Positions 4,661 through 48,711 of a DNA stretch of 64,000 nt are shown here, one piece after another. Position 1 is the first letter of the stretch. Every line of letters begins with the position of its first letter. The notes under the pieces were generated by a model. It did not search any database. It was given only the letters and a program-made list of their open reading frames with translations, and was not told where the DNA came from. The translations under genes and the position numbers were made by a program. Source of the stretch: Amphiscolops sp. MND2022 (Eukaryota); the NCBI GenBank assembly GCA_964187785.1, contig OZ076409.1:8992001-9056000 (forward strand), written 5' to 3'.

Positions 4661-4681
4661 TTGTTTTGATCAAGTGAAGAA

Positions 4682-9027: not shown

Positions 9028-9917
9028 TGAAACTTAGAACTCGAAACTCTTAGAAAATTTTGTCAGGATTGGAGTTAGAATATTACAAGTTTCAGCAGAA
9101 ATATGCCTGAGGGAAAAAACACCACCCCCCGTCCCGGTAAACCACTCATTTAATCACCTTGAAACTTGGCACACGTATAGTAGTGGTGCTACGCTAACTT
9201 TTCACTTGGGACACCGAACCCCGTATCTTCCCTGGGTTCCGAGCTATTAACATTCAAAGTGACCTAGGTCGGACCCCATGAATTACCCAATTTTGATGTA
9301 ATAATTATTATGTGATTTTCTCATATGACCTTGTAGGAAATGTAACTCTGTTGCAATTAATGATGTTTACATTGTGTAAACATACTTTCTAACCCACCTG
9401 ATCAACATGCCAAAACCACCACATTCTTGTTTACATAGCCAATAACTTCATATTATGCTTTAAATGTCATTTATTTATACAACATATTTCAACTGATATT
9501 TGCTTATATTTACTGTAGAATTGTAAACCACATTTATACCATTATTAGATAGAGATTTCTCCACTGAATAGCTATAGTCAAGTTGGGTCTCAGTACCGCG
9601 AGACTAATTGATAAACTTCTCAATCTTCACAACTTTTCGCTAGAGTCAGAGCGACTAAGTAGCTACTCTCATAGTTGGAGAGCCGGAGCGCGTGAAGATA
9701 CTGTGAGGGAAGTGTGTGCAGGATCACATCGGATCCAATTCAGTGAAAAGAGGGATCGCAGGAGATCCCACGGGTCACATCGGACCCATCAAGCCAAAAG
9801 ATACAGTCCTTTAAAACCAGGAATTGTTTAGTGACGGTCCACAGCACTAAGCAACGGATCAGGGCGGCGTAAAGCTTGTCAAGCCTCAGCGCGGGATAAG
9901 GGCAAGCAGCCGTTACA
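8976..9917 (+). repeat. 3' LTR of Bel/Pao element
   Basis: Copy of 3363-4304 with scattered substitutions. Confidence 0.95.
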
Positions 9918-21340: not shown

Positions 21341-22080
21341 CCCGGTACGGTATGTTACGCGGAAAAACAGGAAAAACTTTTTTAGTTCAGTTCGCTAGTC
21401 TAAATAGTGCAATTTAGTGCAATAATATTTTGTAGAACTTTTAAGAACTATTTTGGTCAGTTCGTGTGGATAGAGTCACTATAATAGTCGCGTTTCACTT
21501 CATGAAGCGCCGACTAAAAACATTGCTAAGAAAACACAAAAGCTTCTCCTCTAAGAAAAGGCCTTCGAAGATGCTGGCAAAAGCCATGTACATACTGATT
21601 ATTAATATGCAACGTTATTGGCCGAGATTTTGACCAATTAAAATCAAAGTCGGTTGTGATAAGTTATGGGGTTACAATGTTGGTTGGCAATATTGGTCAA
21701 TGCAATATCTAAACTCAAGTTCTTATTGAATGCAATTATCGAATGTAGAACCTGAGAAGTAAAACTCCCACTCTGGGAGTTTCGTTTAAAATACTGATCT
21801 TCGAAAAAAAATTTAAAAAATAGGTACCATTGTAGGCTGATCACCATAGCATGCAGATTGCATTGCGTTTGGTTTTATGTTATAGTATAGTTGACCTGTT
21901 ACCGACTTGTTCAACAGTTATATGTAACAGCGTATTTTCTGTGTATTTACCCTAGTCGAACCTGCCGGACAGTTTTCCATGGAAACATCCATTCTAATTT
22001 TTTGATAAACATAGAAAATACTGAAAGCACTCATGGAGAAATTTTGTAGGATTACAATGCAGCTTCCGCTATTTCAATTA

Positions 22081-23606
22081 TGTGATAATCCTCACCTAGG
22101 CTCTCTGCATCAGACTCTTCGTCTGAATGTATAGTTACGTCTACATCTGATTCAGCTCGAAACAAAGGCTTTGCAGGATGTCTAAGATCTTTCATTTTAG
22201 AAGCCCTAAGAGGATAATCGTCATTTTCAGAATCAGAATTTCCAATGTTTGATGCGTGAACTCCATTAGACCTATCTATTTTGGATCCCGACGGTTGCTG
22301 ATCTCTGTTTTCGTTAATTTCTGACCTTGGATTTGTTGCCGTAGAAGCGCTTTTGTTAGACTTTATCTCTTTTAAGATTGTTTCCAGTTTGTTTTCCATC
22401 TCTTCTCTCATTTTTTCAATTCGATCATTATTCTTTTGTTCCATAATTTGGGTCCAGGCTTGAATTTCATTACTAACTACACTGGGTTCGATCAACTGGC
22501 CCTCTGAATTGTTTTCACCTAAATTTTCTTGAACAACCGTATTAGAATTAGTTAAAGTCTCATTACCTGTAATGGGTATTCCTACTTGAGTTACTTCCAC
22601 TTCTCTTTCTGGGGAAGGAGTCTCTAATCTCCTAGATCGTCTATTGCGTTTGTTTCCCATATTGCTTTGGGTGAAAATGGTTTTTGGCTTTTGGGGAAGA
22701 ATTTGAATTATCTTGTCTATTTGAAATAACAAGACACTAGAGTATCAGCAAATTACCAAAAGGTTTACAGATGTTTGAAGAAGCAACTGCACTTGTTGAC
22801 AGTTCAGGATTGAATGAATTCTCCTTCAGTTTTTAGAATGAAATAGCTCCAAAAATACCATGACACTCATTTTTACTGCAATCATTATTTGGAAAAGACA
22901 AAAATAGGATTACGTCAGGGTAACGTCATTCTATTTATAGCATCAGCTGAATTGCATCACGTTCTAAGTATATTTAAGGAAAGGACTAGGGAAAACCCTG
23001 GAAATTACCTAGAATGCGATATAAAATACATTTAAGATGGTTTCCAAATAGCATTACTTCAGCTTCCAAAGCTATATAGAAGGTCCTGCTAAAACCGCAT
23101 AATGACGAGTATACGTCACTACACAATCCGCAGAATACCGCATAGTGTTTCTGCAAAAAAAACGTATAGTGACGAGTATGCGTCACTCCTCGAACTGTAG
23201 GGTGCCGCATAGTGAATCTTGACAAAAACGCATAATGACGAGTATGCGGTACTGCTCGAACCGCAGACTACCGCATAGTCGTCAGCACAAAATGGTATTT
23301 AAACTAAATTGGGCTAAATAAGGATCAATGTTACGTAACATATTGCTCATCAACACAAGTTTCCTTTAATCTAACTCGGGTTTTATGCAATTGTTTGCTC
23401 TCAATGACATGTAAAACTAGGCCCTTTTCACATTAAATTGTACAAGTTATTTACATGACTTTCGAAAAAGAGAAAAGGCAAAATGAAAACAAATAAAACA
23501 AAATGTTTATTGTGAAAGTTTCACAGTTTTCAGATGATGGTCAGACACACTGTTCGCTTCAACTACTGTTGCTCTCCGGATCCCACGCAAGTTCTGGGTT
23601 GCGACA
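22081..23606 (-). repeat. 3' LTR of element A (contains a copy of the gag 5' region)
   Basis: Near-identical to 37196-38721; ORF 22052-22732 repeats the gag N-terminus. Confidence 0.96.
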
Positions 23607-24600
23607 GTCCTGCATTTTTGAAAGTGAACAGGGCTGCCTCAAATCCATCGATGAAAGCTCGTGACCTTACATTGCGATCTCTCACAGTTTCCGCTTCATA
23701 CGCTGTTGCGAGGAGGTACTCCCCGAGAATCTCCAACCCGATTTGATCATACGTCCTGCCACACCAGTCGCAAAAACCAGCGATGTTGGGCATCACAGTG
23801 GGGGACAGGCGATATGCGTCTCTCTCTCTGGGGGGCAACAACAGGAAACTTGTACTGTGGCTAGTTTGTACTGTAAGTCCATAGCGTGCTTGTTGTTGGG
23901 CATGCAAACCTCCTGGGCTGGCTATGAATATGGGTGCGTTCTGTGGAATTTGGATCATCATTGGGACGACGTTCTGCTGTAGTGGCATACTAATAAAAGG
24001 AAAATTTGGGTTGGCAATAATTGGTCTGTTTTGATAGACACTGTTCCCAGAACCAGGATTCACTGGTTGTACTTCCTGTATGTCATTTCTTGTTAGGTCA
24101 AAGTTGCTCGTTTGAGGCAAGTAACCAGGTGGGTATGTCGGCACAGGACAGGTAACCGTTCCTCTGCCCCTACCAAGACCCCTTGGAGTCGGTAAAATTG
24201 AGGCGGTCGGACGGCCATAGCTATTCGCAGGCATGCTTCCACTCATTTCCAGTTCATCTGGGGACTCTGGGGATTCTTCGAATTCTGTATCTATAAACGA
24301 TGGTGGCGAGACTGAACCATTGCTCGAGTGTTCCTCCACCAGTTCCATCAGTTGTCTTTCGATCTGTGATCCATCAGTATCAATGACCTCCTCAGTTTGG
24401 TAGGGAATCGAAAAGGAGGGAAACAGAGTTGCGGCGGCTGCGCCCACAAAGGCTGACATGGCATCTGAGGAAGGGCCTCCCACTCGGAATCTCTCGTCCA
24501 GAGCTTGAACATTTCCTGGTTCCACCATAAACTCTTCCCCGGACTCACTGGAAACGTCGATAACTGAGGGCGAAGAGATCTCGTCTATGTTGGTTTGCAT
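23563..24600 (-). CDS. Element A 3' accessory ORF (acidic/Pro-rich with C-terminal CxxC domain), ends inside the 3' LTR
   Basis: 345-aa ORF with ATG; GFCDWCGRTYDQI..EI..GEYL...RAFIDG aligns by eye with the element B ORF at 54547-55218. Confidence 0.8.
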   Translation of the reverse strand: MQTNIDEISSPSVIDVSSESGEEFMVEPGNVQALDERFRVGGPSSDAMSAFVGAAAATLFPSFSIPYQTEEVIDTDGSQIERQLMELVEEHSSNGSVSPPSFIDTEFEESPESPDELEMSGSMPANSYGRPTASILPTPRGLGRGRGTVTCPVPTYPPGYLPQTSNFDLTRNDIQEVQPVNPGSGNSVYQNRPIIANPNFPFISMPLQQNVVPMMIQIPQNAPIFIASPGGLHAQQQARYGLTVQTSHSTSFLLLPPRERDAYRLSPTVMPNIAGFCDWCGRTYDQIGLEILGEYLLATAYEAETVRDRNVRSRAFIDGFEAALFTFKNAGLSQPRTCVGSGEQQ

Positions 24601-25942
24601 TCTTCTGTTTTATTGTTGGGTTCTACTGTAATGTATTTTTTAGAGAAAGTTCTCACAAACTTATTTGGAGTGAAAGAGCTGCTGAATGTGAATTGAATTG
24701 AAAACCATATGGTGATCTCTCTTCTCTTTCCTTCTGACTTTGGAGGAAAACCCGCGGAAAAATTGCGTGTCATGTTCTGATCCTTTAACTTCCCTTATAA
24801 GGGTTTTATAGAGGATAGGTTTTCGGGTTTCATCCATAATAAGTTGTAAACAATTTCCATAAAAGGTGTTTCACTTAAAGCTCCAACGGATCATCAGTCA
24901 TCATCAAAGCTTACAGTTTTCCTCTGATATTCAAATGATATATAAACAAATTCATCCTAACTTCAAAGTAACTAGCTAAGAAATATTTTCATGGAAGTAT
25001 TCATTTAAACAGTTCAGAATTAAATATATTTAATCCTTCATGACTAGGTAAACATGAAAATAGAAAATATTAACGTGAATGTTTCATTTCAAATTCAGAT
25101 TATTACAGGATCAAAGTTTATTTTTAAGGAAAAACATAGTTTAATCCCGGTCCTGCAATTTTGAAAAATGCAACAGGGTTAGCAATAGTGCAAATAAGTT
25201 TACATGTTTATTGGTAAATCCATTTAGGAAAACTTGCAAAGGGTACCAGCAGTCTAGAAGAGATCTCGTCTATGTTGGTTTGCATTCTTCTGTTTTATTG
25301 TTGGGTTCTACTGTAGTGTATTTTTTAGAGAAAGTTCTCACAAACTTATTTGGAGTGAAAGAGCTGCTGAATGTGAATTGAATTGAAAACCATATGGTGA
25401 TCTCTCTTCTCTTTCCTTCTGACTTTGGAGGAAAACCCGCGGAAAAATTGCGTGTCATGTTCTGATCCTTTAACTTCCCTTATAAGGGTTTTATAGAGGA
25501 TAGGTTTTCGGGTTTCATCCATAATAAGTTGTAAACAATTTCCATAAAAGGTGTTTCAGTTAACGCTCCAACGGATCATCAGTCATCATCAAAGCTTACA
25601 GTTTTCCTCTGATATTCAAATGATATATAAACAAATTCATCCTAACTTCAAAGTAACTAGCTAAGAAATATTTTCAAGGAAGTATTCATTTAAACAGTTC
25701 AGAATTAAATATATTTAATCCTTCATGACTAGGTAAACATGAAAATAGAAAATATTAACGTGAATGTTTCATTTCAAATTCAGATTATTACAGGATCAAA
25801 GTTTATTTTTAAGGAAAAACAGAGTTTAATCCCGGTCCTGCATTTTGAAAAATGCAACAGGGTTAGCAATAGTGCAAATAAGTTTACATGTTTATTGGTA
25901 AATCCATTTAGGAAAACTTGCAAAGGGTACCAGCAGTCTAGA
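24572..25942. repeat. 685-bp tandem duplication inside element A
   Basis: GAAGAGATCTCGTCTATG at 24572 and 25257; copies differ by a few substitutions and one indel. Confidence 0.93.
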
Positions 25943-26129
25943 CTTTTGAAAACATAATAAAATCAAAAGAGCATCAGTGTCGTATTCACACGTTAATAGT
26001 GTCACATGTGTTTTGTCATTAAGAATATGTAGTTTCTTCGTCATATTGCATAATACCATCCATTCATACGCTTCTAATCATTGACAATATTAATCCACTC
26101 CTTTGGAATGCATACAGCGAAAACTGCAG

Positions 26130-26275
26130 GACGCCGAGTATGCGTCATTACTCGATCCGCATACTGCCGCATAGTCCTTGCCTGCAATTCCGCATACTGC
26201 CGCATACTCGTCACTGCAATTCCGCATACTGCCGTATACTCGCTGTTAGTCGATCCGCATACTGCCGTATGCTCT
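26130..26275. repeat. Degenerate CCGCATA-containing ~30-bp repeats
   Basis: TCCGCATACTGCCGCATA repeated; same motif family at 23095-23280, 29570-29810 and 38210-38395. Confidence 0.75.
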
Positions 26276-26639
26276 AGCATACAAACCATTCCAATTTGGT
26301 TCGTATTAGCGTATTTGCATGTATTCTCTCATCCAGAATCCACAATGAGTCAATCAATCACGCCGGCAGACGAAATTGACATTTAATTAACCAATCAGAT
26401 TATAGTATTCTCTTGCACATTTGCGCAAACTTGCATCATTTGCTCTTTGCCTTCTTTTACGCCACGCCTTCTTACGTATATTGCATTTTCAGTCAACTTA
26501 TTGTTAATTTCCTTGTTCAGTCTTTAGTCGTAGTTCACACATACAGAAGCAGTTCATCCATATCTTCCCCGACTTCCTTACATAACATTTCCAGCAGGAA
26601 AATTTCAAATTCGCATAATTTCATTACTCTTTTGGGATA

Positions 26640-29600
26640 ATGGATTCTACACCTGGCGGGTCAGGTTCTTCAGGCAAACGAAGATCCAGAAAAGATCAAT
26701 CGCCACATCACCGCGACGACTTTTGGAGTGATTTACCTCTCAATCCGATGTCCGGTAAGCTCAACTCATTTGTTTTGATTTGGTTCATTTTGATTCAGAT
26801 TTGAGACTTTTTGGTTTTTTGCAAAGCTGGCCAGGCTTGCAACTTGAAAATGGCTAGCGAAAATGTCTAGTCCAAATTCGGGTTTTTTGAAACGTTTTCG
26901 CTTCGAACTTCTAAGCTACTTCCGTTCTACTTTCATTTCCTGTCCCCGCGTCCGGTTTCAGGCATTTTCAAACGTGTTTCGCTTGCTAGATCAGATCCAC
27001 TTCCTTCTTTCATTAGGTAATAGATCATTGTTTTAGTTGAACTCTGGACTTCTCGGACTTCACCAGAAAAATCGCCTCACAAAACTGCCGCCACTTCAGA
27101 AAAATCTCCTTCTGTAAAGACGCCTGACAAAGTGTTTACCCCACTAGGAGTAGCTTCGCCTAGAGCAGCCAGTCTCCAAGTTCCCTTTGTGTCTCCTAGT
27201 GCTCAACCTCTCAGCATTGACGAGGGTATAGAAGTAGTAACTACCCCTGCATCTGTGAATCGTGAAGAGAACTGCTCAGCACAGGAACCAAAACAGAGAG
27301 CTGAATTACACTCCCCAGATAGACGTGTCAATCTTGGTGAAACAGCTGCAACTACCCCCACCACTAACATGGGCGATTTTAATCCAGTATTACAGCATGA
27401 CTTTACCGGGACTTATCCTGCCCCCCAAATTGCCCAGGCTTCTCCTTTCCAACTCGGGCAGTATTTGACTCCAACTTTACTTGATGACGCTACGGGGGAA
27501 AATCCCACTCTACTCGATGACCCCGCCAATTCAGAGATTGGAAATCTTGGACTTCAAGAAACCACCCGCACTGCTCCTACTGAAGGGGACTTTACTGACG
27601 TTGCCTATCCCAGCCTTAACGTCACTCGGCAGGAGATTCTGACACTAAGTAGTGTCTTAGAACGAATCCCACAGAACTTCATGTCCGGCGAAGGGGTAGA
27701 TGCTAATCAGCCCTTATCGCTAACTGTCGTGGATCACACTCTGGATCCTACACTCCTAGCTACATCAAGTCAGGAAGACCTTCCCGGACCCTCATCGTCC
27801 AGACCTCTGTCATCTGAAGGGCATGAAAGGCAACAGACAACACATGGCAAGAGGAGGAGACCTAGGTACTCACTGACAGTCAGTATGCTCAGGAAACATC
27901 CAGTACTTAAATTTTCCGCAACCGGTCCTCTGGATGCTGAGAAAACACCTTACAAGTGGTGGTGTAGAGTATGTAGGACGGAACTATCGCTGATGAGCCG
28001 GGGACCGTTGGAATTAATTTCGCATTACCGTTCAGACACTCATTTGACGAAAGAACACCGAATTCGCATGGAAATTCCTGGCACCCCACTGTTTGACAAG
28101 GATGGGAAAGAAATTCTAGGGATTTCCCTTCAGGAAGCAAAGAAGGTGGCTAGAGACTCCCACCCAATTGCTCCCCAATTGGACTCACGTCATCCTTTGG
28201 TCGGCCAATCTGCTGTACCTGCACTAGGAGTCGTATCTAGTCCGACCGACAAAGTCCTCTTTCAAATCGCCGTCTTGGAACATGGACTCAGACATGGGGG
28301 TCACATTAAGAGCGTCACAGGGATCTACGAGGAATTGTCTCGACTGATGTCCAATGACCAATCGACCACCCAAAATTGGAGTGAGCAACGAGTGTTTGTA
28401 AGTACTTTTCTCTACCTTGCTGATCTTAGTTAGCATTCCCTTACTAGGTTGTTATTCATGCTATGTTTTTTCAACAGGGAATTCTCGTGTACATGTTCAG
28501 AGAATTGATGAACTACTGCGTTACCATGACCACTTCTTCTGGGGCATATTCACTAGCAGTACAGCATTCACCAACCCATTCCTTTGTGATTTTATCATTC
28601 TGGTCGGGGAATGTCTTTCACCGTGTCTGCTTAGGCAGTTCTCCTCGAGGACTATTACTCCCCCGGAGGATTCTTAATTTGCTTGCCTCTTTCCTCAGCC
28701 TTTTTGACGTTCCCCCTTCGTGTATTGCACTTATTGGGGTTGGAGACAAGTTAGATGATTGCTTGTCAAACACTTTACCAGGCTCAAAAAGACCATGTAT
28801 TGTCAATACTTATGGGACTACCGACCTCGAAGTTAGTTTAACACTGCCGACAGTCCAAATAATTGAACGTCACGATTTTCGCACAATTTTGGACTTTCTC
28901 CTCATGAAATTGAGGACTGCACTTGACCGTGACTGGTTGCAGAGCTTGCCTACCCTTCATAAGGTATTTCTCACTCTTGGCTGTTTTCAATTTTGTTTCA
29001 CACAATCTTAAAGTCTCTCGTTTCAGTGTGTAATTCGCCTCGAGTACTCATTAGATGAAGCATCAGTTATCATTGAAGAATTGTCAAACCATTGGGATCG
29101 TGTTCGGGAGCATTTGAACCAGGTAGCAAGACTCCCAGTATACCGATTCCACATGAGAGTGGTTATTACACTTCCCAATAATCCCATTTCTTTGGAATTA
29201 CTTTGTTACTCAATATATTTTCTCTTAATTCAGCCGAACACTCTCGACGAATGTTTCCGCTTGGATACAGCCTATTTAGCCAGACTCTTCATCATCAGAT
29301 GCGTGTTAGACCACTGTTAGTTGCTCCACATCTTCTGATAAAGTATTGTAGTATCATTTGTTACCGGTTTTTAAATTTTCTGTTCAATCATTTTGTAATT
29401 CGTGCCTTCCCGTTTCGAAATAGGAGCCGTGAGGTCGTCATTTATCCATTCTACCAGTCATTTACTGTAGCACATGCATTTGCTTTCAATTTTGTAACAA
29501 TGATGAATAGTCATCGTATCTCCATTCGCATATTTGCGTATAACCATTTGTATATGCCTAAGGTAGTAGCATATAATCGTCACTGCTATTTCCGCATAGT

Positions 29601-31008
29601 GACGCATAGTCGTCGCACCTCGATCCGCATGTTGACGTATAGTCGTCATACCTTGATCCGCATGGTGACGTATAGTCGTCATACCTTGATCCGCATAGTG
29701 ACGTATAGTCGTCATACCTTGATCCGCATAATGCCGCATAGTTAATTTCTTTCAATCCGTATAATGGCGAGTATTCATTGCGCTTCAATCCGCATAATGC
29801 CGTATAGTTCCCGTATGATATTCCGTATAGTGTAGATATTTACTATACGTTTGCTCTCGTTTCATATTACTATGCAGCATATGAAATTGATTCAGACATA
29901 GCTGATCAATTAGTGCTGTTTTTGTGTTGTTTGTCCAAACGTGTTGGTGCAATAATATATTCCGAACAAATGTGTTCCATTACGTAGATTTTGGTATGTT
30001 TCAGATAATTCGGCCTTTTCGGAAGTAGAGAAGCGCATTGAAGGCGGATTTCGTTTGTACAATCAATTTGCCGTCTTCATATACAGTCAATTACAAAGTA
30101 TACTACCCGATAGTGTGCTAGGGAGTATTTCCGATTGGGACAGATATCTCACTATTGATCTCGACCAAACTGAGCTTCCTTACAAGACGTCTAGTGAATT
30201 TATTTTGAATGAAGACTTCCACAAGTTGGTTTTGGCAAGTAGGTTACCCCGTCCGGGGAAATTTGTGGACCAATCGATCGCCTTTTGTAAGGCTTTCTGC
30301 AAGTTACTGCTGTGCCACGATGTCATAAAGTCGGACTTAATCAGGGGGTTGTCAGCTTTTGACTCCAGTGTTATGATCGAGGGTCCCGAGGAACACTATT
30401 CCAGTGCAATTGAGAAGCTGTCGTGTTACTTTTCTAGTGCCGGGTGGATTTCAAGCAGCGATAAAGTAAAGATCATTAGTCAGTATCGTTCCTTTGTTAC
30501 TAAACTCCGTGCTGGACCAATACCAGAATACGAAGATTGGGTACATTTTTTGTCGTCTCATTATGAGATCCGGTGTCGTCCAGAGTTGCTTCAGCTTTAT
30601 AAGTACTCTTGCTTATGCTTGCCTCCTCTTATCGAAATGTCTCCAGAATTCACTGTTCCAGTTCTACGTTTAGAAGGTAATACTGAGTCCTTTCAGTCAT
30701 GCTTGCGGAGTTTACAGGCTTCCTATTTAACTGTCCCACACGTATCAAGTCTGTATCGTGATCCAAAATCTATCCCTCGAGTCTTCCGGCTTCTGGGACG
30801 TGGTGAGGATCTACTTACCGACAAGAGCTTTTACAATCTACTTTTACGAACCGAGAAGCCACCCATAACTTCAAGCAGTACAACACCTAGTGTTAGTCGG
30901 CACAGCAGTATAAATAGTTCGCCGTCCCCTGACCCTTCACTAAGCAGAGTTAGCCTGGAAGTTCCTCGCTGTGGAGACCTGGAAGCTGGAGGAGCATCAA
31001 AAAAATGA
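26640..31008 (+). CDS. Spliced antisense accessory gene of element A (~1047 aa): disordered N-terminus, BED-like zinc finger, degenerate hAT-transposase-like body. Predicted exons 26640-26754, 27037-28397, 28478-28963, 29027-29122, 29234-29315, 30005-31008
   Basis: All five GT-AG introns keep the frame (3144 nt total); WWCRVCRTELS...SHYRSDTHL; homologue in element B. Confidence 0.75.
29570..29810. repeat. 30-bp tandem repeat in predicted intron 5 of the antisense gene
   Basis: Unit GATCCGCATRGTGACGTATAGTCGTCATACCTT-like, ~5 good copies. Confidence 0.85.
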
Positions 31009-31227
31009 AGAATAAGTCTGGAAAAAACAAGATGACGAATTGAGAGTGTTCTCGCTTGACTTTGGATCTGTGTATTACTAGTTTGTTTTGTTTGTTTCGG
31101 AAGCCTTATTCTATCCGACTATTTACTCATTTAGTTGTATCTTCTTTGAATGAACTGATAATTCGTCTAGTTACGAACTGAAAAGACAGGAAAGAGATAA
31201 GAGAACGACTCTTCTGTGTGTGTTTTT

Positions 31228-34200
31228 TTAGTATCTGTAAGAGTCAGAGTAGTTTGGGTTGGGATTGGGGCGTAAGTTGTATTTTTCACCACGAGTATTT
31301 ATGGGTTCTTCTCGCAATGGGGTATTTTGTGATTTTTCTAGGGTTTTTTGGGTATCATCAACCGATGAATTATTTGGTTCTTTTTGAGTTTTTTGGGTAT
31401 TTTCATCATCTTCACTGATGTGTTGTGGAATTTCATTTTCATGATTGTCGCAATTTTGATCTGGTTCAGTGGTCTGTTCCACTGGGCTCCCCCCACTATT
31501 TTTTGAAGATCCTGGGGAGGGAGGGCGGTTATCATTAGGTATTTGGATTGGAGTATATTCGGTTTCCTCAGTGTCTTCTGAGTATTCTGAAGGACCATCT
31601 TCAAACGGATTAGATCCAAAATTTGTATTCCATGATTGGGCATATAGATCATCATTTGCTATAGGCATCTGGTCATCTTTTTGCCAATCAGTTTCGCGGA
31701 CAAAAATATCTGCTAATGGAGCTTGCGGAGTGAATTTTCGCAGGCGTATCCTGTGTAGCAGTTGCGTTTTGTTAGTACCAAGTCTCCTGACAATATAATT
31801 TTTGTTAGGGAGCACTTTTTCCACTTTATATGGACCACACCATCTGAATTCTCGAAATGGTATTTTCGTCGCTTGCGTGTCGGCTTTTGGGTTGAGAATG
31901 TAGCAATAGTCCGTCGTTTCGAGCGGTGCTGCTTTGGCTTTCCTATCATAGTAGGCTTTGTACTTGAGATAGGATTGCATGATATTTTTCTTTGTTTGAT
32001 CTAAAAGGATTTTCATGCGTTTTTGTATTTCTTCTGCCACATCTGCCTGTGGTTGATATCGTGGGTTAGGGTTATATCCGAGTTTATAGTCTAGGATATT
32101 ATGTGGTATTATGCCATGGAAGACTCGTGAAGGTTCACAACTGAGTGATGCATGGTATGATGTGTTATGGTTAAGGACTGCTAACGGGAGATATTTATGC
32201 CAGTTATTCCTGAATTCGCCTGTTGCAGCTTTTAGGTGTGTTTTCACTGAGGCATGGGTTCTCTCGAGGAGTCCTATTGTTTGGGCATGTTTCATTGTTG
32301 CGTGTTTAAGTTCAATTCCCAGCACTGCAGCAACTTCGTGAGTTACTTGAGTGTTGAATTGAGTGCCTAAATCTGTGATTATCGTTGTTGGAAGGTAGGT
32401 GTGCTTGCATAGTATATCCATGATGACTCTTGATACTGCTGTGGCGGTAATACGAGTCACGGGATAAGCAAACAAGTATCTCGAGAAGACATCTATTGCT
32501 GTGATGATGTGATCATAACCTCCGCTAGAGGGGAGGTTTGGTAGAATATCCATCTGTAGAATGTCTTCCGGGCCAAGATCCCATTCTGGGCAATTAAGAA
32601 GTTCGGTTCTGAGGAGATCGTTGTTGATACGTTTCGTTTGAATGCAGACTTGGCAGTTACTGACCCATTTTTTAATGTATTTAGCCATACATGGGTAGTA
32701 ATATTTTTGTCTTGCTTCCTGAATCATTTTCGTGATTCCTGGGTGGTTTGAATTATGGCCATGAAGGGCTTGTAAGAGTTCATCTAAAAGTTGAACCAGT
32801 AGGAGAATCTGGTAGTGAGATGTGGTTCCTGTGTCCGTATAGTATTTTCGGGTGAGGACTTCTTGTTTAATTTCTATTCTTGTTATGTTTTGTAGGTAGT
32901 GTTGGTATCTGTAGTCTGATGCCAACTCATTCTCGTCGAAGGGGTTGCCTTCGATTTTTGCTCTCAGGTTTCTGAGGACTACGTCATTATTCTGCTCGAG
33001 GCGGATTTTTGCATTGTCCTTGAAGTATCCTGATGAAATAGAGATTAATCCTGAGGTGGGTTTGTGAAATTGTTGTAGTTCAGCGACCTAATTTTCGGGG
33101 TCGTTGTGTGTTTCAGTTTGAGCTTGATTTCGGATATTTTGTTTTTCTTCCCGAAGTTGTGTTTCGTCGATTTCATCATCTGGGAGAACATAGATTTGTT
33201 CTTCTTCAGCGATGCCTGTTGATTGGATATTCACTTCAATTGCTTTTGTGTGAATATCATTACGAATATTCATTTCAAGTTTTTCTGTTGGGTCGACTTC
33301 TGTTCTAGATAAGAAGTCTGCTGCGGTATTCATCGAGCCAGCAACATGGGCGATTACAAAATTGTATTGCAGGACATAATCGCATGCATTCCATAGTGCT
33401 GGAGGAATCATTTTTGTTTGGAAAAAACTAGTTAATGATCGATTGTCTGTGAAGACTATGACTGGGAAGGTGGTTCCCCACAAGAGGTGGCCAAATTCCA
33501 CGAATGCAAAATATATGGAAAGAAATTCTTTCGCATATATTGACATTTTCGTTTGAGTTGGATTAAAAGTTTTTGAACCGAATGCGATGGGTGCATAGGT
33601 TTTACGTTTGGATTGCAGTTTTTGGTTTGGGTCGTCTTCTATCATTATTGCGTATCCTGCTGCCATAAAACTGGCATCGGACATGACTATCAATTGTTTG
33701 TCTTTCAGGGGTTGCTTTAGTGCCAATTGACAAGAGTTTTCGAGTAGTTTGTTGAGGTTTGTGAAATCTTCTACCAAGTTTGTTGGTACGTAAAATTTGG
33801 ATGTTTCTTTAAGTAGTTTAAAGAAAGGAGAAAGTCGTTCTGAAAGGCGTGGAATATAGTTGCGATAGTAGTTTAAAAATCCGATATATCTCTGCAACGC
33901 CTTCTTTGATTTTGGAAAGCGAAGTTTTGAGAGGAAGTCTTTCACTTTGTCGGCTTGTGGGGCGACTCCATGGGGAGTTATTGTGCGACCCAAGAAATCA
34001 ACTTGTTTGACTCCGAAATGACATTTCGACTTGGAAAGTTTCAATCCCGCATTGCGCCTGCATTCGAAGACTGTTCTGATGTTTGTGCACAATTGTTTTG
34101 TGTCATTCGCTGCTATGCCAATGTCGTCTACATATTGGGCACATTGGTCTGCTTTTATTGCCTTGTCCAGGTACTCTCTCATGAAGCTTGAGAATGCAGA

Positions 34201-36117
34201 GAGTGATCTGCTGAAGCCCTGGGCGAGACGACGGTATGCAAATGTTCTGCTTGCAAAATTAAAAGCTAGCATCTGAATTGATTGGTAGTCTGCCATTTGT
34301 AGGCAGTGGTAAGCCTGGGAGCAATCTAGTTTGCAGAAAAGTTTTTTTCATGCCATGTGTTGAGCTGCATCCGACAAAGTGCTTACCGGGTGATTATTAT
34401 TGGTATAATCTTCAGTTATTAAGTTATTGATTTTCCTTAGGTCAACAAGGAGCCTAAGGCGCCCATTGGGTTTGCGTTGTGCAAATATGGGACTCGCGTA
34501 TTTAGAGAAGGGTAGATTTGTGATAATCCCATATTTGAGGAGAAGTGCAAGTTCTACCGTGATGTCATCCTTTAGGTTAATCGGCGTTGGTAGGCTTTGG
34601 CTATAAGCAGGTCTGTCATCATTTGGTGTAAGTTTTATTTTGAATTCACGATTTATGCCAATATCGAAACGATGTCTGGCAAAAATGTCATGGAATTCAA
34701 TGAGGATTTCTTCAATTTCCTGTTGTTCTTCATGGTTGAGTGTCGTATCAGACCAGTCGAAGTTCGACAGGAAAGCTTTTCGAGAAGATTCGTTGTCATG
34801 TGGATTCAATTTCTCGAGTTCTTTTAGTTCGAGAAGTTCGTTGTAAATTCTTTGCTGAATTGGGGTGTAGGTAGCTGGGTCACCTGGTTCTTCAGGTGAT
34901 GGGAACCAGTATGTTTCGTGGTCAGTATTTGGTTGGGGGACCTTTAGCAATTCATTTATGTAGACCTCTGTTGTCTCTTCATATTGTATCATGAAAGATA
35001 GCAACGCTGGGTCTACCGGTTGGATGTGTTTAATTTGTTCTGGAGTTAGTATCTTGAAATCCGCTAAATGGGTATCAAGGGTTATTGTATATGGGAGTTC
35101 GGAGAAATTGATGATTTGATATCCGATGGCATTGTTAGTGACAGTGCTGAGTGATGATGTGATAAATATGCTATCGTGGTTTTCAAATTGTTGTGATGGT
35201 GTGACAATTCCTGTCGCATCATGATCCATCAGATGAGGCATTTTGCTTGCTATGGCAAGTGTTTCCCCTGGTTGTAGGGTATAGGTATTTTCGGCAAACA
35301 ATGGTGTTGCTTGGCGTATTGCTGTTTGTGTATCAGGCTTGAGCTGCATCGAGAGGTAGGGAAAAGTTAAGATGCCTTGACTGACATCAAAAATTGCATT
35401 GTTCCTTCTGAGGAAACAAAATCCGATGAGTGGGTTTGGTAGGTTTTTCATGACGATGAAATTTTCCCTCAACATGAAAGCAGCCACTTCGAATTCAAGT
35501 AATACAGTACCAATTGGAACTTCCAGTTGTCCATTAGCCACCATAATTTGGAAGTTTGGTGGGGGACCAGTTTCTTTTATAGCTTCACTTGCTAGGAGTT
35601 TGATTTTGTTGAGGGCTTGTTCAGAGATTGCGCTTGTACGCGCTCCTGTATCGATAAGACCATCAAGCGTAAGTTTTTCGAAATCCATTGGTATGTAGTA
35701 CATATGGCGTTTTCTCTTCAATGTCAAGGAGGTTGAGATTGGAAGGTATGACAAGTTCCGTTCCTTGTCGAATTGTATATGTTCAGAGAGATCTTCATCT
35801 AAAAGTGGTTGTTTTTCTTCATTGCAAGAAGGTTTTATTATAACATGAATTTTTGGAGTGTGGTGAATTTCTGGAGTTGGGTCATTTTTGGGATGGGTTG
35901 GTTGTTGTGGAAAGTAATTGTCTGGTGCATCGTGCAAAAGTTCGTATAAGTCTTCAGTTTGAGTTTCTAGAGTCGATTGCTGCGAATTTTGTGTCGTTAG
36001 TTCAGTTTCGCAAACTGCTGTTTTTGTGGGTTTTGGGCTCAGCGGATGCTGCCAGTCATCTGCTAAGTTTTGTTTTTGTGGTGATTTTGTGTAGAGGCGT
36101 GGCGTTTCTAGTTTAAA
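31228..36117 (-). pseudogene. pol: pol of element A (protease, RT, RNase H, integrase); single frame with two in-frame stops
   Basis: LIDTGA; RLLVDLRKIN; QYVDDI; MSDAS..YAKEFL..FTDN..ADFLSR; H-H-C-C; MDIL..ITDLGTQF..LERTH; WCGPYKV. Stops at 34348 and 33088. Confidence 0.95.
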
Positions 36118-37775
36118 TCCTTCGACGAGGATTGTTGTTGTCGTTCCATTCTTGGTTTGATTGGTTTTTTAGCTTGTTTATAGTTTTCGATCACCTTTTT
36201 CTGGGCTTCTGTGAGAGTCCATTTAGGTGGTCTATTTTCCATGTTTGCGCCAAAGTAGCAATTTTCTTCATCATGTCCCGGTGTATTGCAATTTTGGAAT
36301 TTTTCAGCATCTGGGTCTTCCTCAAGTTTACGTCGTTTGGCTAATTTGGGGCATTCAGCCATCATGTGGCCTGTCTCTTTGCAGTAACGGCATTGATCAT
36401 TTTTGAAGGTTTTATTCGGTACTGTTTTTGGTGTTTGTGTTTTGGCTTTTTCATTTTGTTTTTTGTTGGTTTTTTCAGCGTTTTGTTCTTTTTTCGTGGC
36501 CGTCATCTGGGTTTTCACCAGGGGTTCATCAGCTTCCAAACCATTTAGCTCCATCTCTCTTTCGAGATGTTTGACGATTTGGTCGTATGTTCCATTTTCA
36601 AGGTATGCTTGATTAATGGACTTTTTAAGGTGGGGAGGCATTTTAGCGTAGAGTAGGTTTTCTATCATCTGATATGCACTCTCTTGGAGTTCCTCTAAAA
36701 AATCTGGAAGTTTCTGGTGTTCTGGGTCAAATGCAAGTCTATTGAATCTGTGCTTAGCTGAGGCACTAGATTCCGGCTTGACATACTTTCTGCGAAAGAC
36801 TTTTAGGATGTCTTCCAAAGTCGTTGTTGGGGTTCGTTGGATATTTTTAAACGTTTTGAGTGCCAAACCTCTGAGATGTGCATGGAAATGGTTGATTTTC
36901 ATTTCCTCAGTTAGGTTTGGTTGCATTTTTAGGGTTGTATGGAACAAGTCTTCAAAGTATTCAAATTTCTCATTTTTCTCATTTTTTCCATTGAAAGTCA
37001 ATGTGTTTTTCGGATGAAACAGTGATGGTTGTGTGTTTTTGTTAGCTAATCGTTCAATTGCAAGTGCAATTTGATTGACTGGGTCAAGTGGTTTTGTTGT
37101 TAAATTTGGCAGATTTTGGTCTGCGTGGAATCCTGCTGTGTCATTTAGTTTTTGTGAACTTTGTCTATGGAGTTGTCGGTTGGCTCCTGTCACCATGTGA
37201 TAATCCTCACCTAGGCTCTCTGCATCAGACTCTTCGTCTGAATGTATAGTTACGTCTACATCTGATTCAGCTCGAAACAAAGGCTTTGCAGGATGTCTAA
37301 GATCTTTCATTTTAGAAGCCCTAAGAGGATAATCGTCATTTTCAGAATCAGAATTTCCAATGTTTGATGCGTGAACTCCATTAGACCTATCTATTTTGGA
37401 TCCCGACGGTTGCTGATCTCTGTTTTCGTTAATTTCTGACCTTGGATTTGTTGCCGTAGAAGCGCTTTTGTTAGACTTTATCTCTTTTAAGATTGTTTCC
37501 AGTTTGTTTTCCATCTCTTCTCTCATTTTTTCAATTCGATCATTATTCTTTTGTTCCATAATTTGGGTCCAGGCTTGAATTTCATTACTAACTACACTGG
37601 GTTCGATCAACTGGCCCTCTGAATTGTTTTCAACTAAATTTTCTTGAACAACCGTATTAGAATTAGTTAAAGTCTCATTACCTGTAATGGGTATTCCTAC
37701 TTGAGTTACTTCCACTTCTCTTTCTGGGGAAGGAGTCTCTAATCTCCTAGATCGTCTATTGCGTTTGTTTCCCAT
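36108..37775 (-). CDS. gag: gag of element A, initiating inside the 5' LTR
   Basis: MGNKRNRR start at 37775; TFNGKNE..FEYFEDLF capsid-like region; CRYCKETGHMMAEC knuckle. Confidence 0.9.
   Translation of the reverse strand: MGNKRNRRSRRLETPSPEREVEVTQVGIPITGNETLTNSNTVVQENLVENNSEGQLIEPSVVSNEIQAWTQIMEQKNNDRIEKMREEMENKLETILKEIKSNKSASTATNPRSEINENRDQQPSGSKIDRSNGVHASNIGNSDSENDDYPLRASKMKDLRHPAKPLFRAESDVDVTIHSDEESDAESLGEDYHMVTGANRQLHRQSSQKLNDTAGFHADQNLPNLTTKPLDPVNQIALAIERLANKNTQPSLFHPKNTLTFNGKNEKNEKFEYFEDLFHTTLKMQPNLTEEMKINHFHAHLRGLALKTFKNIQRTPTTTLEDILKVFRRKYVKPESSASAKHRFNRLAFDPEHQKLPDFLEELQESAYQMIENLLYAKMPPHLKKSINQAYLENGTYDQIVKHLEREMELNGLEADEPLVKTQMTATKKEQNAEKTNKKQNEKAKTQTPKTVPNKTFKNDQCRYCKETGHMMAECPKLAKRRKLEEDPDAEKFQNCNTPGHDEENCYFGANMENRPPKWTLTEAQKKVIENYKQAKKPIKPRMERQQQSSSKDLN
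36111..36117 (-). promoter_or_regulatory. -1 ribosomal frameshift slippery site T TTA AAC at the gag/pol junction
   Basis: Heptamer correctly phased just before gag TAG; the -1 frame is open into pol. Confidence 0.8.
37182..37195 (-). promoter_or_regulatory. Primer binding site of element A (TGGTGACAGGAGCC)
   Basis: Abuts the LTR end; identical in element B; resembles a tRNA-Leu-type PBS (identity inferred). Confidence 0.8.
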
Positions 37776-38721
37776 ATTGCTTTGGGTGAAAATGGTTTTT
37801 GGCTTTTGGGGAAGAATTTGAATTATCTTGTCTACTTGAAATAACAAGACACTAGAGTATCAGCAAATTACCAAAAGGTTTACAGATGTTTGAAGAAGCA
37901 ACTGCACTTGTTGACAGTTCAGGTTTGAATGAATTCTCCTTCAGTTTTTAGAATGAAATAGTTCCAAAAATACCATGACACTCATTTTTACTGCAATCAT
38001 TATTTGGAAAAGACAAAAATAGGATTACGTCAGGGTAACGTCATTCTATTTATAGCATCAGCTGAATTGCATCACGTTCTAAGTATATTTAAGGAAAGGA
38101 CTAGGGAAAACCCTGGAAATTACGTAGAATGCGATATTAAATACATTTAAGATGGTTTCCAAATAGCATTACTTCAGCTTCCAAAGCTATATAGAAGGTC
38201 CTGCTAAAACCGCATAATGACGAGTATACGTCACTACACAATCCGCAGAATACCGCATAGTGTTTCTGCAAAAAAAACGTATAGTGACGAGTATGCGTCA
38301 CTCCTCGAACTGTAGGGTGCCGCATAGTGAATCTTGACAAAAACGCATAATGACGAGTATGCGGTACTGCTCGAACCGCAGACTACCGCATAGTCGTCAG
38401 CACAAAATGGTATTTAAACTAAATTGGGCTAAATAAGAATCAATGTTACGTAACATATTGCTCATCAACACGTGTTTCCTTTACTCTAACTCGGGTTTTA
38501 TGCAATTGTTTGCTCTCAATGACATGTAAAACTAGGCCCTTTTCACATTAAATTGCACAAGTTATTTACATGACTTTCGAAAAAGAGAACAGGCAAAATG
38601 AAAACAAATAAAACAAAATGTTTATTGTGAAAGTTTCACAGTTTTCAGACGATGGTCAGACACACTGTTCGCTTCAACTACTGTTGCTCTCCGGATCCCA
38701 CGCAAGTTCTGGGTTGCGACA
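37196..38721 (-). repeat. 5' LTR of element A
   Basis: TGTCGCA...TCACA on minus strand; CTATAAATAG TATA-like box at 38046-38055. Confidence 0.96.
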
Positions 38722-40186
38722 AATTAAAACTGAAAACATTTTCACTTCTTCATCACGTTGTTTTCACGCGTAAGTTTCTCAAGTAAGGACCTAATGTAAT
38801 CACCGTTAGTCAATAGCACGCTGAATATGACGCTACTATGATGTTTATAACGTGACTGAAGATTCTTTGCACTGAAATCGTGGTAAAATTATTAAGGTCA
38901 CAGCTGCTTTCAAAATTAGAATGGAATCTTGATGAAACCTGCAAAACTTCGTGCCTCGGAATTTCCGCCAAATTTAGGATGCATTTTATAGGCAGCTTGA
39001 TAAAATTAAATTGATTAATTAAAATTTTGATGCATGGAAGTCTCCTGTAGAATTTTATAAAATCATGAAAAATTAGCTTGGTAACCTACAAGTACTTGTG
39101 AAAAGTTCAAGCAGTTTTAACCAAGGTAGTCAATCAACCTTGTCCGTGTAAATCTGAGTATTTTAGCGAGATATAGCGTCTCGACGCCGATGCTTCATAT
39201 ATGTAAACAAAGTTATAGTGTTTTACATAGAATGTCGACCAAGTGCAAGTAACTCAGTAATGTTGGCGAAAATGGTTGCTATCTTGACCTACGAGTGTTT
39301 CAAAGACATAGCTTCTAGTTTCCACCAAGTCTCTTTCCTTTTCTATTCCAAACCACTAAGCATAAAAATATCATTTAAAAAGATCTGCTTGCATTATCAG
39401 GAAAAAATTACAAAAATTAGAAATTGTATGTTTTGCCAAACTTTCCTCACATTTGCACTTTTTCCTGGTTTTCACAAAGTTGAAAATATGTTTTTTTAAA
39501 TAAAAACGTTGGGTCAATCAATAGTCTCCTGAGGATGCTGAAAAGATTTAATTGAAAAACTTTCAAAATAATCATCAAATTCTCAAGTACAATTTTCATC
39601 GATTATCTTAATACATGTACTGCAGGACTCATAGACATTAAACACAGGGTGTTTTTTTCTGATTCGAAACAACATGTCGATCAAAACAATTCAGCAGGTT
39701 CGGGATTTTATCAGGAGTCCCAAAAAAATTTCAAAAATTTTCGATTGTAATGTACTTTTTTCGAACAAATCCAGATTTCAATTAAAATTTTTAAAAATGT
39801 TGCATTTTCAAACTTCAGTATGGAACGTAAAACTTTCAAACAAACAATGTTGTACACTAGATATAATTCCAAGAAAATTTCGTGGCTGTTCAATTTTTGT
39901 TTTCTTGATAGTTTACGATATATATTATTTTGAAATTTGCTATTTTAAGCAAATGAGGATACTATTTTTTAGAACGCTAGGGTACGCATATCACAATAAC
40001 ATAGTCATCATCACACTGCGTTTTTTTCCGTAGTTCACTCCTCCAGCTAAACAATAGATGAAATCAACAAGCTAGCAGTAGGCTAGGAATGGAAAAAGGA
40101 TTTGTTTTTCATGCTCAACATGAAAACCTCAGTTTCATCTCAAACACACTGCTTTTTTAAAATTTCAATTGTTTTCATACCCGAAC

Positions 40187-40266: not shown

Positions 40267-41903
40267 TGTCGCAGGCTGCCGCCTGTGACGGCAATTACTA
40301 CCAAATCCCTTCAGTAGACGATCTATCTAACCCCCCGCCAGGAGTATTCCCTATTTAGAAGGTTTGACAACAATGGACCGATGGTACGGACGGCCTCACT
40401 CAAATTGAGGCAAATATAGAAGAACTGCGTCCAAAACATAAAGGACCTTAGGTCGATACGGCCTCATCAAACAATTGTGTTAAAATTAATCACAAAACAC
40501 TCTACTTTATAAAATTTACCGTTGCTTAATATTATAGTTAGTTTGTGCTTGATTTACTTGTTGATTATTGTTGAAATAGTAATGTACCAAATGAATTGGA
40601 ATTAGCAATGTAAAATGATCAATTTGAATGATGTATTAGAATGCAATTGAAGCGCAGTAAGGAAACGTGTTCAAATGTACTGTTGTTGTGGCTGATTGTA
40701 CGCAACGTCGAGTGCTATATTAACCAATCAAATCGAACTAGCTATACAATTGGTGACGCCGCATGGACGTTACGTCCGATTTGGCGTAATTGCCAATCAC
40801 GCTGTCTGTGATTTTTCTAATGACATGAAGTGTTAATATTGGAAATATAAACATGTAAATAGCATATTCAGGCATAATAAAATTCCTCCATGCGTATTTA
40901 TATGACATCATAATCTCCAGCTACAACCCTTAGCTGCTTCTCTTTGATGCTATTTTTGTCCTTACAAACATGATGAAATAGTGATGTAATGTCCCTAGAA
41001 CTGTTCCAAAACCCCATCTATTGCTATTTTTAGAACCATGACCCGCATCATTCTGTGTGTAACCCCACCCAAACTATAAATAGCGGGAACATTGGAGAGC
41101 AAGGACCAAAACTTTCACAATCTTGATACAAACAAGTCGATATAATATTGTCACAATACTGAACTTTGAGTTTAAAACTCTGCTGATTCATACTTTGCTG
41201 ATTTGGATTATCTTGTTAGTTGATATTTACAATTGACTGTGAAACTCAAATCCCCTTCTCATGCCTTCCACGAGAAAGCAAAAGGCTAAAGAAGGTCGTT
41301 CTAGACAGTTAGACATGCTGTCCGATGTAGAAAATGTTGACATAATGCTTGGAAGTTACTCTAGGGAAGATGAAGAGAATAATGTTAGTGAAAATGAAGT
41401 GAATTTGGACTTAAGGTCTAGCAGACCACAACAAAGCTCAAATGTTATAGGAGAAGACTTTAGGTCCTTGCTTAATACCAACAGCAGGGAAAACAGTGAA
41501 ATCACAATTTAGACTTCTAGGTTGATAAGCGAGGAAATTTCCAATCAAATGTCTAGAAAACTCAATGAAATTAAAACTGGTTTGAATTCCCAAATTAAGG
41601 ATGCAATTACAGCTGCAATAACAAGTACAGTGCTTCCTTCCATCCAAAATACACTAGAAATGCAGGGGATACCTAATTTCACCATGGTGGACCGGGAGTC
41701 CAACGGGCCACATCCTAGCCCAAGGTCGACCGATTTCACATTAAAGGACCGAAGGTCCAGTGGGCTACAATGGAACGCCGAAGTAGGAAATTTGCAGAAA
41801 ACATGGGAAAATCGTTCTAGAACATGTTTTACACAGGAAAATAGTAGACTGAGGTCTAGAGAGAGTTCAACAAACTCTATAACTAGCGAACAAAATCGCG
41901 ACA
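40267..41903 (+). repeat. 5' LTR of element B
   Basis: TGTCGCAGG...TCGCGACA; CTATAAATAG at 41074-41083; copy at 55118-56753. Confidence 0.96.
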
Positions 41904-43027
41904 TGGTGACAGGAGCCAAACCTACCCCACATATGGTTCCCGAGTTTCTCACTGGACGTCCCATGCTATCTCGAGATCCCCTGCAACGTCAAAATTCCAA
42001 CAATGACGAGTCTCAGGATACAACTCCCCAGGTCCCTGAGACCACAACACCAACTATTCCTTCTGATCCCAATAACCGTCTTGCAGAAGTACTAGTCGGC
42101 ATGAACAACCGTCCATCAGCACAAACACTGATGGTACGCCCAGTCAGCACGAGTACACTGACTTTCGACGGCAAATCAGAGAAATTCGAACTTTTTGAAG
42201 ATCTCTTTCACACAATGATAAAAATGCAATCTGATATGACCGAAACGATAAAAATCAATCAATTTCATTCACTGTTGCAAAAAAATGCCCTGCAAACTTT
42301 CCGTAACATCAATACGGCAAACAGGCAAACATTGGAAGACATTCTAGCTGTATTTCGTCGGAAATACGTCAAACTTGAGTCCCAGGCGACTGCCAAACAC
42401 AAATGACACAGATTGGTGTTTGATCCAAACACCATGAAACTACCCGACTTCCTTGAAGAATTAAACCAAGGAGCTGAAAAAGCGTTTGGCGAGAACGCCC
42501 AGGCCATGATCGATAGTCTCCTCTATGCCAAGTTGCCGCCAAAATTGAAACGCTCCGTCAATATGGCTAGACTTGAAAACGCCATCTATGAGGAAATTGT
42601 CACCCATCTAGAACGAGAGCTTGAGCTCAATGGACTTGAGGAGGGGGACGACATTCCAGTACCAACAATGTCCACTGCCCCTACAGCAACATGACCGGGA
42701 ACTGGCCTTCTTTCCTCTGGCATTGACCCAAACATTACTTGCAACTATTGCAAGAAACCTGGACATGTCAAAGACGATTGTCGCAAACTTAAAAGAAAGG
42801 AGGAACAACGCCGCAACGACGGACAGGTTACCAAGGAAGAATATCCAAAATGTCCAACTTGCGACAGAACGAACCACCCGGCGGAAAGATGTTGGAAAGG
42901 CGCTGGAGCCCACCTCAAGCCCAAAAACCTTAAACTGGATGACACCACGGCCACCGATAAGTCCACCAGCCAAGAAGACGCGAAAAATAAACAAACCACG
43001 TCCATTTTAAAGAATCCAAAAAACTAG
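41261..43027 (+). pseudogene. gag: gag of element B, initiating inside the 5' LTR; in-frame stops
   Basis: MPSTRKQK...RDMVTGA...TFDGKSEKFELFEDLFHT...HLERELELNGLE; knuckles CNYCKKPGHVKDDC and CPTCDRTNHPAERC; stops at ~41510, 42404, 42692. Confidence 0.9.
41904..41917 (+). promoter_or_regulatory. Primer binding site of element B (TGGTGACAGGAGCC)
   Basis: Abuts the LTR end; identical to element A. Confidence 0.8.
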
Positions 43028-48525: not shown

Positions 48526-48711
48526 CCAGAATTGTAAATTAACTGTCCCGAATAAACAATTGCAGAATAATATCTTTGCGGGACTTGACTGAATAAAAGA
48601 CAAAGAATACAGTAAAAAACAGAACACTAAATAGAATCCCAAAGTGTCTATACGAAAAGTTTTAGAAGCACTGTACAACAAACTAAAATGACAATTGTAC
48701 ATATGGTACAA

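Follow-up and report, generated by a model that had tools for sequence, protein, structure and literature searches.

The 64,000-nucleotide stretch of DNA analysed here (the window; positions 8,992,001 to 9,056,000 of contig OZ076409.1) was drawn from the 1.07-Gb assembly of Amphiscolops sp. MND2022 (GCA_964187785.1), and the diverged copies described below were taken from the same genome. Self-comparison of the window by self-BLAST revealed three pairs of long terminal repeats (LTRs) that delimit elements A, B, and C. Elements A and B each hold a convergent gene, antisense to pol, between pol and the 3' LTR. A preliminary description of the window, made from the sequence alone, had interpreted the product of this gene as a catalytically dead hAT-type DNA transposase carried by a retroelement. 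We followed up this reading by determining the structure of the gene, its conservation, and the predicted fold and catalytic positions of the encoded protein.

Element A (22081-38721, - strand) is a complete Ty3/gypsy LTR retrotransposon as judged by its LTR pair, target site duplication (TSD), primer binding site (PBS), and Pfam domains. Its 3' LTR (22081-23606) and 5' LTR (37196-38721), both on the - strand, have a length of 1527 nt and TG..CA ends and are 99.1% identical to each other according to self-BLAST, which pairs 22080-23606 with 37195-38721; the element is bordered by the 5-bp TSD AATTA at 22076-22080 and 38722-38726. A PBS complementary to TGGTGACAGGAGCCAACC abuts the 5' LTR at 37178-37195. 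The gag-pol region (31228-37170, - strand, with an approximate upper bound just below the PBS) encodes, from 37.2 to 31.2 kb, a gag zinc knuckle, an aspartic protease, reverse transcriptase (RT), RNase H, and integrase in the Ty3/gypsy order (Pfam), and pol is interrupted by two in-frame stops, TAG at 33088-33090 and TGA at 34348-34350. Element B (40267-56753, + strand) is a diverged, likewise complete Ty3/gypsy LTR retrotransposon. It has LTRs of 1639 nt (97.7% identity, self-BLAST) with TG..CA ends, the TSD TGTAA, the PBS type of element A, and the same Pfam domains from gag zinc knuckle and protease through RT and RNase H to integrase, in Ty3/gypsy order, and its pol proteins are about 50-76% identical to those of element A. 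LTRs, short TSD, PBS, and domain order are thus all those of Ty3/gypsy LTR retrotransposons, and the notion of a retroelement-borne antisense protein was borne out for both elements. An alternative genetic code was considered and rejected. TAG, TGA, and TAA are mixed among the in-frame stops that interrupt the antisense gene of element B and pol of elements A and C, and stops of such mixed kinds therefore indicate decay rather than recoding.

The antisense gene of element A extends from 26640 to 31008 on the + strand and comprises six exons and five GT-AG introns, which yield one open frame of 1047 amino acids, so that the spliced protein proposed earlier could be assembled. Exon 0 (26640-26754) starts with an ATG at 26640, encodes a conserved basic N-terminus (MDSTPGGSGSSGKRRSRKDQ), and ends at a phase-correct GT-AG junction. 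Exon 1 (27037-28397) encodes a low-complexity region, a zinc finger of the form C-x2-C-x16-H-x5-H (WWCRVC...HYRSDTH; 27963-28043, within the open reading frame (ORF) 27024-28433), and a helical linker. The product of exon 2 (28478-28963) was modelled by AlphaFold2 as an RNase H-like core consisting of a helix, strands b1-b3, helix a1, b4, a2, b5, and further helices, with the b1 strand AYSLAVQH encoded at about 28544-28567. Exon 3 (29027-29122) and the 82-nt exon 4 (29234-29315) encode 32 and 27 amino acids, respectively, and exon 5 (30005-31008), which ends with the stop TGA at 31006-31008, encodes an all-alpha domain (residues 10-205; 30034-30621), a helical part modelled with less confidence, and a tail that is S/P-rich and disordered. 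All exons are on the + strand, and the predicted exon junctions are 26754/27037, 28397/28478, 28963/29027, 29122/29234, and 29315/30005. A four-exon model was rejected as it contained 12 stops, and inclusion of the 82-nt exon 4 restored the frame. No canonical AATAAA was found directly past the stop codon, where only AATAAG is present. The gene is located between the pol stop (31228) and the 3' LTR (23606) and does not overlap pol.

All sequence strings on which the preliminary description was based were found on the + strand of element A, i.e. antisense to pol: the finger in the ORF named above, YSLAVQHSPTHSFVILSFW in ORF 28448-29011, and RGLSAFDSSVM, SQYRSFV, and RPELLQLYKYSCLCLP in ORF 29956-31008. 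The counterpart in element B is a decayed gene on the - strand (48712-53285) that is colinear with the element A protein and in which the finger is followed by YSLEFAQEGVFLLVFIRYW and RPYLMRIFRLSCLCL. This gene contains at least two in-frame stops, one of them a TAA (51366-51368) that interrupts the finger, and frame changes occur in the exon-2 equivalent. The two proteins share 27% identity over 239 amino acids (tblastn, E 2e-17) in addition to further colinear blocks, a resemblance that by this comparison exceeds chance.

To determine the conservation of the predicted gene, we fetched 20 diverged copies whose exon 2 is 62-94% identical to that of element A. The splice sites were retained almost throughout: donor GT and acceptor AG were present in 20/20 and 20/20 loci for intron 1, in 20/20 and 19/20 for intron 2, in 17/20 and 19/20 for intron 3, and in 19/20 and 20/20 for intron 4. 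Exon 2 has the same 162 codons in all 20 loci, and in an alignment of 64 sequences the conservation of the protein breaks off precisely at the donor of intron 2. The N-terminal peptide encoded by exon 0, with its conserved Met and basic stretch, was recognisable in 13 of the 20 loci (E<=0.2). The zinc finger, the best conserved feature of exon 1, occurs in its strict pattern in 16 of the 20; its spacing is common to elements A and B and to the relatives P0354, P0351, P0350, and P0309 and is shorter by one residue in P0313. An exhaustive profile search identified distant relatives such as P0354 (635 amino acids) in which the finger and the exon-2 domain (residues 459-623 in P0354) are located in a single uninterrupted ORF, and this arrangement therefore independently confirms the join between exons 1 and 2. 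By far the best conserved among the exon segments compared across the 20 loci is exon 4 (PNTLDECFRLDTAYLARLFIIRCVLDH), which is near-invariant with a mean column identity of 93%, while the other exons are 50-70% identical.

When compared to the two nearest lineages, three exon segments displayed dN/dS values of 0.04-0.09; in the remaining 18 loci dS was saturated and dN ranged from 0.12 to 0.44. When the genome was searched in six frames with exon 2, 4863 first-look candidates were obtained. Among 150 scored copies, all had E values below 1e-67 and 136 were without a stop. As the antisense gene and pol do not overlap, the constraint is not borrowed from the opposite strand. An integrase gene on the opposite strand lies convergent and just downstream in 20/20 loci, which shows that the antisense gene is an integral part of the family rather than a nested insertion. 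Taken together, these sequence comparisons indicate that it is a genuine, selected accessory gene of a large, very abundant Ty3/gypsy family. One of the copies, L021 (G000:C12:40692631-40699600), proved to be a mosaic when compared to window positions 26000-33100. Its integrase region is 98.3% identical to that of element A at the DNA level, whereas its antisense gene is only 63-67% identical, and identity breaks off where pol stops and the antisense gene has its 3' end. Across the remaining loci, the DNA identity of the integrase region amounts to 78-86% (the nearer relative L011 is much lower in protein), and the antisense exons of the 18 more distant loci are 63-74% identical. Because the mosaic of L021 breaks at the gene boundary, it suggests that the gene module has been exchanged between element lineages by recombination.

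To elucidate the identity of the protein, we modelled its exon-defined parts and compared the models with known structures. The best exon-2 model (m43794af73b93, predicted local distance difference test (pLDDT) 71.6) starts with a helix that is followed by b1-b2-b3-a1-b4-a2-b5, which is the RNase H order, so that the predicted fold agrees with the RNase H-like catalytic core of the hAT superfamily. In a Foldseek search against 350,542 PDB chains, the top match of this model was the hAT transposase Hermes (4d1q_G; E 2.5e-3, probability 1.00, TMq 0.42, rmsd 4.6, 125 columns), followed by further Hermes entries, RT-RNase H, Argonaute PIWI, integrase, Mos1, and ASKHA kinases. A Fanzor/TnpB-like identity was rejected, with TMq values of 0.16-0.19 for the Cas12 RuvC matches compared to 0.42-0.45 for Hermes. 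The exon-5 model (mf6f5a5fc9c54) is all-alpha with pLDDT above 80 in residues 10-205, and the top match of this domain in a VIA search was Hermes 368-590, the region of the insertion domain. The score is weak by the calibration of the tool; the match carries weight because it falls on the family that had been predicted beforehand. ESM-Atlas features of residues 255-620 of P0354 had named neighbours exclusively among hAT-derived families (DUF4371, FAM200-ZBED5_RNase-like, ZBED1_RNase-like, DUF659, and zf-BED; scores 0.87-0.92). According to the available text of PMC6027215, hAT transposases consist of a finger, a linker, an RNase H core, an alpha region, and a C-terminal part, and the domain order of the antisense protein is colinear with this architecture. 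At the level of predicted folds, the architecture of a hAT-type transposase is thus supported. The preliminary description had stated that its reading would fall if, beyond the finger, neither structures nor profiles matched an RNase H-fold/hAT transposase; since structural matches exist, the reading stands in this respect.

On this basis, we assign a probability of roughly 60% to the reading that the antisense gene, under selection in its Ty3/gypsy elements, encodes a hAT-like, probably non-catalytic, DNA-binding accessory protein, the function of which we infer. A number of results weigh against it. Only exon-defined fragments were folded, and the other four of the five exon-2 models reached pLDDT values of 54-58, so that a single one exceeds 60. 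In the VIA search with exon 2, Hermes was tied with integrase cores and ASKHA kinases. Foldseek yielded no match below E 1.8 for the exon-5 model, whose ESM features fell to an unnamed, mostly molluscan cluster and to DUF3684/DUF8348, not to hAT. At the sequence level, no Pfam match (E<=0.1-1) was obtained for the antisense ORFs of the window, for 47 exon-5 sequences (that of the window and 46 homologues), or for eight long relatives. PF14291 had zero matches in the genome, and control genomes likewise gave none. When profiles of exon 2, exon 5, the broad family, and exon 4 were aligned by hhalign to six genuine hAT transposases of the same genome, all six of which have the canonical D, D, CxxH, RW, and SERxFS, the probability did not exceed 0.12%, and a profile hmmsearch of the PDB with two profiles detected no transposase and one chance match, a phage tail terminator (E 0.14).

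Further sequence searches gave the same picture. The zf-BED model of Pfam did not match the antisense protein at E<=1; with genuine hATs from this genome, the model reaches scores of only 0.02-0.03. PF05699, which represents the C-terminal hAT dimerisation region, is absent from the window ORF and from all 47 exon-5 sequences, and this model does detect genuine hATs in the genome (2215 first-look candidates, of which 150 were scored, down to E 1.9e-20). The genome contains many such hATs (e.g. L043-L048), several with uninterrupted transposase ORFs of 597-697 amino acids and canonical motifs. A word-index search for exon 1 within longer proteins found none, and a cluster look-up of six long relatives returned no names. 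By eye, the exon-4 segment FRLDTAYLARL resembles the TRWNS.Y.ML block of hATs. In a sliding BLOSUM62 comparison with the RW block, the best window overlapped RW in 2 of 6 hATs and was not significant (shuffle p 0.09-0.79), and a conserved RW motif was not found in the antisense protein. Hence, of the proposed identity as a hAT-type transposase, the structural part held up in the matches to Hermes, while every sequence-level test (Pfam, PF14291, hhalign, and PDB hmmsearch) failed to detect it. Because PF05699, the DDE triad, and profile homology all fail, the protein is called 'hAT-like' here and is not assigned to the superfamily.

These results leave room for an RNase H-like core without hAT descent, which might derive from a retroelement integrase, another DDE superfamily, or an old host protein, in which case the matches to Hermes would reflect the shared superfold. 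We consider this unlikely. Hermes ranks first in Foldseek, with a match that also covers the helix preceding b1, and independently the single best match of the alpha domain is the insertion-domain region of Hermes; the named ESM matches are restricted to hAT-derived families. An integrase origin in particular is at odds with the finger, which is of the CCHH type and N-terminal as in BED-hAT proteins, in contrast to the HHCC finger of integrases, and with the large alpha domain after b5, which integrases do not have. Clearly less probable is that modelling the exons in isolation produced a spurious fold assignment and that the accessory protein has an undescribed fold. This would be in line with the gap between the best exon-2 model and the other four, the poorly modelled residues 206-333 of exon 5, and the lack of a match to any Pfam family. 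However, three methods, applied to two non-overlapping parts and two sequences, converge on hAT-type proteins, and the order of strands and helices is the textbook RNase H order.

The catalytic residues of Hermes are D180, D248, and E572, and its RW motif consists of R318 and W319, as given in the available text of PMC6027215. We located the corresponding positions from motifs and secondary structure rather than from a residue-level superposition, and counted residues in 64 A-lineage exon-2 sequences, 38 diverse representatives of the whole family, and 47 A-lineage exon-5 sequences. The position of the first D, within the hAT 'h-S-L-x-x-D' of b1 (position 29), is occupied by Q in 48/64 A-lineage sequences and family-wide by E in 10/38 and Q in 8/38. 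The residue after b4, where the second D is located in hATs, is G in 31/38. At the third position, the glutamate E227 of 'E-x-F-x-S' in exon 5, an acidic residue is present in 33/47 A-lineage sequences, and element B has P. Conserved throughout the family are W42 (37/38), D133 (32/38), and W153 (35/38). As mapped, the canonical DDE triad is not conserved. The claim that the catalytic acids are missing is therefore upheld at the mapped positions, and catalytic death is likely for the A lineage, with a weaker case for the family as a whole. Because the mapped DDE positions are not conserved, the protein most likely no longer cuts DNA.

The opposite reading, that the protein still works as a nuclease or recombinase through acidic residues in a non-canonical arrangement and supplies the retroelement with a DNA-level activity such as target cleavage, excision, or end processing, is in our view the least probable of those weighed here. 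Acidic residues do occur in b1 outside the A lineage, with E in 20/38 and D in 2/38 at position 27, two residues before the position that is E in 10/38, and together with the near-universal D133 they would be compatible with some catalytic activity. Position 90 is D or E in 58/64 A-lineage sequences, and the strong purifying selection would also fit an enzyme. However, apart from D133 no single acidic position is conserved across the lineages, and G prevails at the site of the second hAT D. The A lineage, despite its thousands of copies, carries A/S and Q at the b1 positions, and neither a CxxH nor an RW motif was found.

The window contains repeat arrays that are candidate cis sites for the antisense protein. 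A bipartite motif of the CCGCATA type (CCGCATAnTGnCGnATA), spaced by 33 bp, occurs in 20 matches compared to 0.18 expected. All 20 are on the + strand and inside element A, and element B has zero. The arrays are located in the 3' LTR (23095-23277, four copies) and the 5' LTR (38210-38392), 370-480 bp upstream of the antisense ATG (26157-26271, four copies), and within intron 4 (29526-29806, eight copies). CGYATR half-sites with a spacing of 10/22-23 nt are enriched in intron 4 of 20/20 diverged loci, and in many of these the motif block of the intron has a higher DNA identity than the adjoining exons. It is plausible that the 33-bp arrays are binding sites of the antisense protein.

In general, introns of a retroelement persist only if they are not spliced from its genomic RNA, and this holds for the antisense gene. 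Its introns would survive retrotransposition because the genomic RNA represents the other strand. According to the mechanism we propose, transcription of the antisense gene would start at a promoter of its own or on the side of the 3' LTR, the transcript would be spliced, and the protein would be imported into the nucleus. There it might serve the element as an oligomerising, sequence-specific DNA-binding factor that either regulates transcription or chromatin or is a cofactor of integration, with the arrays of the LTRs, the upstream region, and intron 4 as its binding sites. A more specific version, which we regard as doubtful, is that a transposase-derived, ZBED-like factor encoded by the element recognises the element's own 33-bp arrays and thereby provides anti-silencing, insulation, or guidance of integration, with the exchange of the module between lineages reflecting an arms race with the host.

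Additional features were identified in the window. Between the 3' LTR and the antisense gene of element A lies a tandem duplication of a 685-bp unit (24572-25942; 99% identity), and a 348-amino-acid ORF in sense orientation (23563-24609, - strand), of low complexity and without Pfam match, is located just inside the 3' LTR boundary. Element B contains a tandem duplication of a 666-bp unit within gag-pol (44164-45494; 99% identity). The third LTR element, element C (3362-9920), has 946-bp LTRs with 98.5% identity. It lacks an antisense gene, one in-frame TGA is present at 7027-7029, and matches of its ORFs are to DUF1759 and DUF5641, families typical of BEL/Pao elements. Of the two ORFs at 12237-12956 (- strand) and 2435-3184 (+ strand), one matches the double jelly-roll-like domain PF21738 (E 1.8e-7) and the other weakly Endonuclease_7 (E 1.4e-4); both may be remnants of a virus-like or Polinton-type element.

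The antisense protein has the domain order of Hermes and other hAT transposases, i.e. an N-terminal CCHH finger, a linker, an RNase H-like core, a large alpha-helical region, and a C-terminal part, and both of the domains that were modelled find their best structural match in Hermes. It differs from them by the lack of detectable sequence similarity, of a Dimer_Tnp_hAT domain, of the conserved D, D, and E, and of the RW motif. Furthermore, hAT elements have terminal inverted repeats and an 8-bp duplication, whereas the gene described here is internal, antisense, and intron-bearing and resides in LTR elements with 5-bp duplications. Domesticated hAT proteins (ZBED, DUF4371/FAM200/GTF2IRD2-type, and DREF/BEAF-like) serve as DNA-binding or chromatin factors. 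They likewise combine a finger with an inactive transposase core and represent the nearest named ESM-Atlas clusters for P0354. However, the antisense protein matches no Pfam model of these families, and domesticated hAT proteins are encoded by single-copy host genes, while the antisense gene is apparently present in thousands of retroelement copies and exchanged between lineages.

Antisense genes of retroelements have been described in two other settings. The HBZ protein of HTLV-1 is spliced and nuclear. HBZ and similar retroviral proteins are encoded by the minus strand of the provirus and expressed from a promoter in the 3' LTR, according to the available text of PMC10186651, and resemble the present protein in being encoded on the opposite strand of the element. 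HBZ is a small bZIP protein, whereas the product described here has about 1050 amino acids, is transposase-like, and is encoded by a gene with five introns. Plant Ty3/gypsy elements of the Retand, Grande, and RIRE2 types have an antisense ORF (aORF-3R) and tandem-repeat arrays in a long region between pol and 3' LTR, for which a DNA-binding or regulatory role is suspected in the available text of PMC11963269 and PMC7264820. The arrangement in element A is similar, with the antisense gene situated after pol and before the 3' LTR, together with repeats at 24572-25942, 26157-26271, and 29526-29806. The Transposase_28 domain (PF04195), which most of the plant ORFs carry and which is present in 97% of Retand clusters (PMC11963269, available text), is absent from the antisense protein according to Pfam, and the latter further differs by its animal-type genome, its different fold, and its six-exon gene; the word 'intron' does not occur in the main texts of PMC11963269 and PMC7264820. 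In the literature searched, supplements and subscription journals lying outside its scope, no animal LTR retrotransposon was found to have an antisense gene that is hAT-like or spliced. Accessory genes in antisense orientation are already known from LTR retroelements; according to these searches, a protein of this type had not been associated with them before.

A few retroviruses and plant Tat/Retand elements are known to carry such genes, the roles of which are largely open. A recognisable fold, five introns, strong purifying selection, an apparent abundance of thousands of copies, and candidate cis sites render the function of an antisense retroelement gene directly testable in this family. 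For genome annotation, the gene implies that gene finders will call its exons as many orphan 'host' genes and that repeat maskers may label the region as unclassified. If the hAT origin is true, the scaffold of a DNA transposase would have been domesticated not by the host but by another transposon, a class II protein put to use by a class I element.

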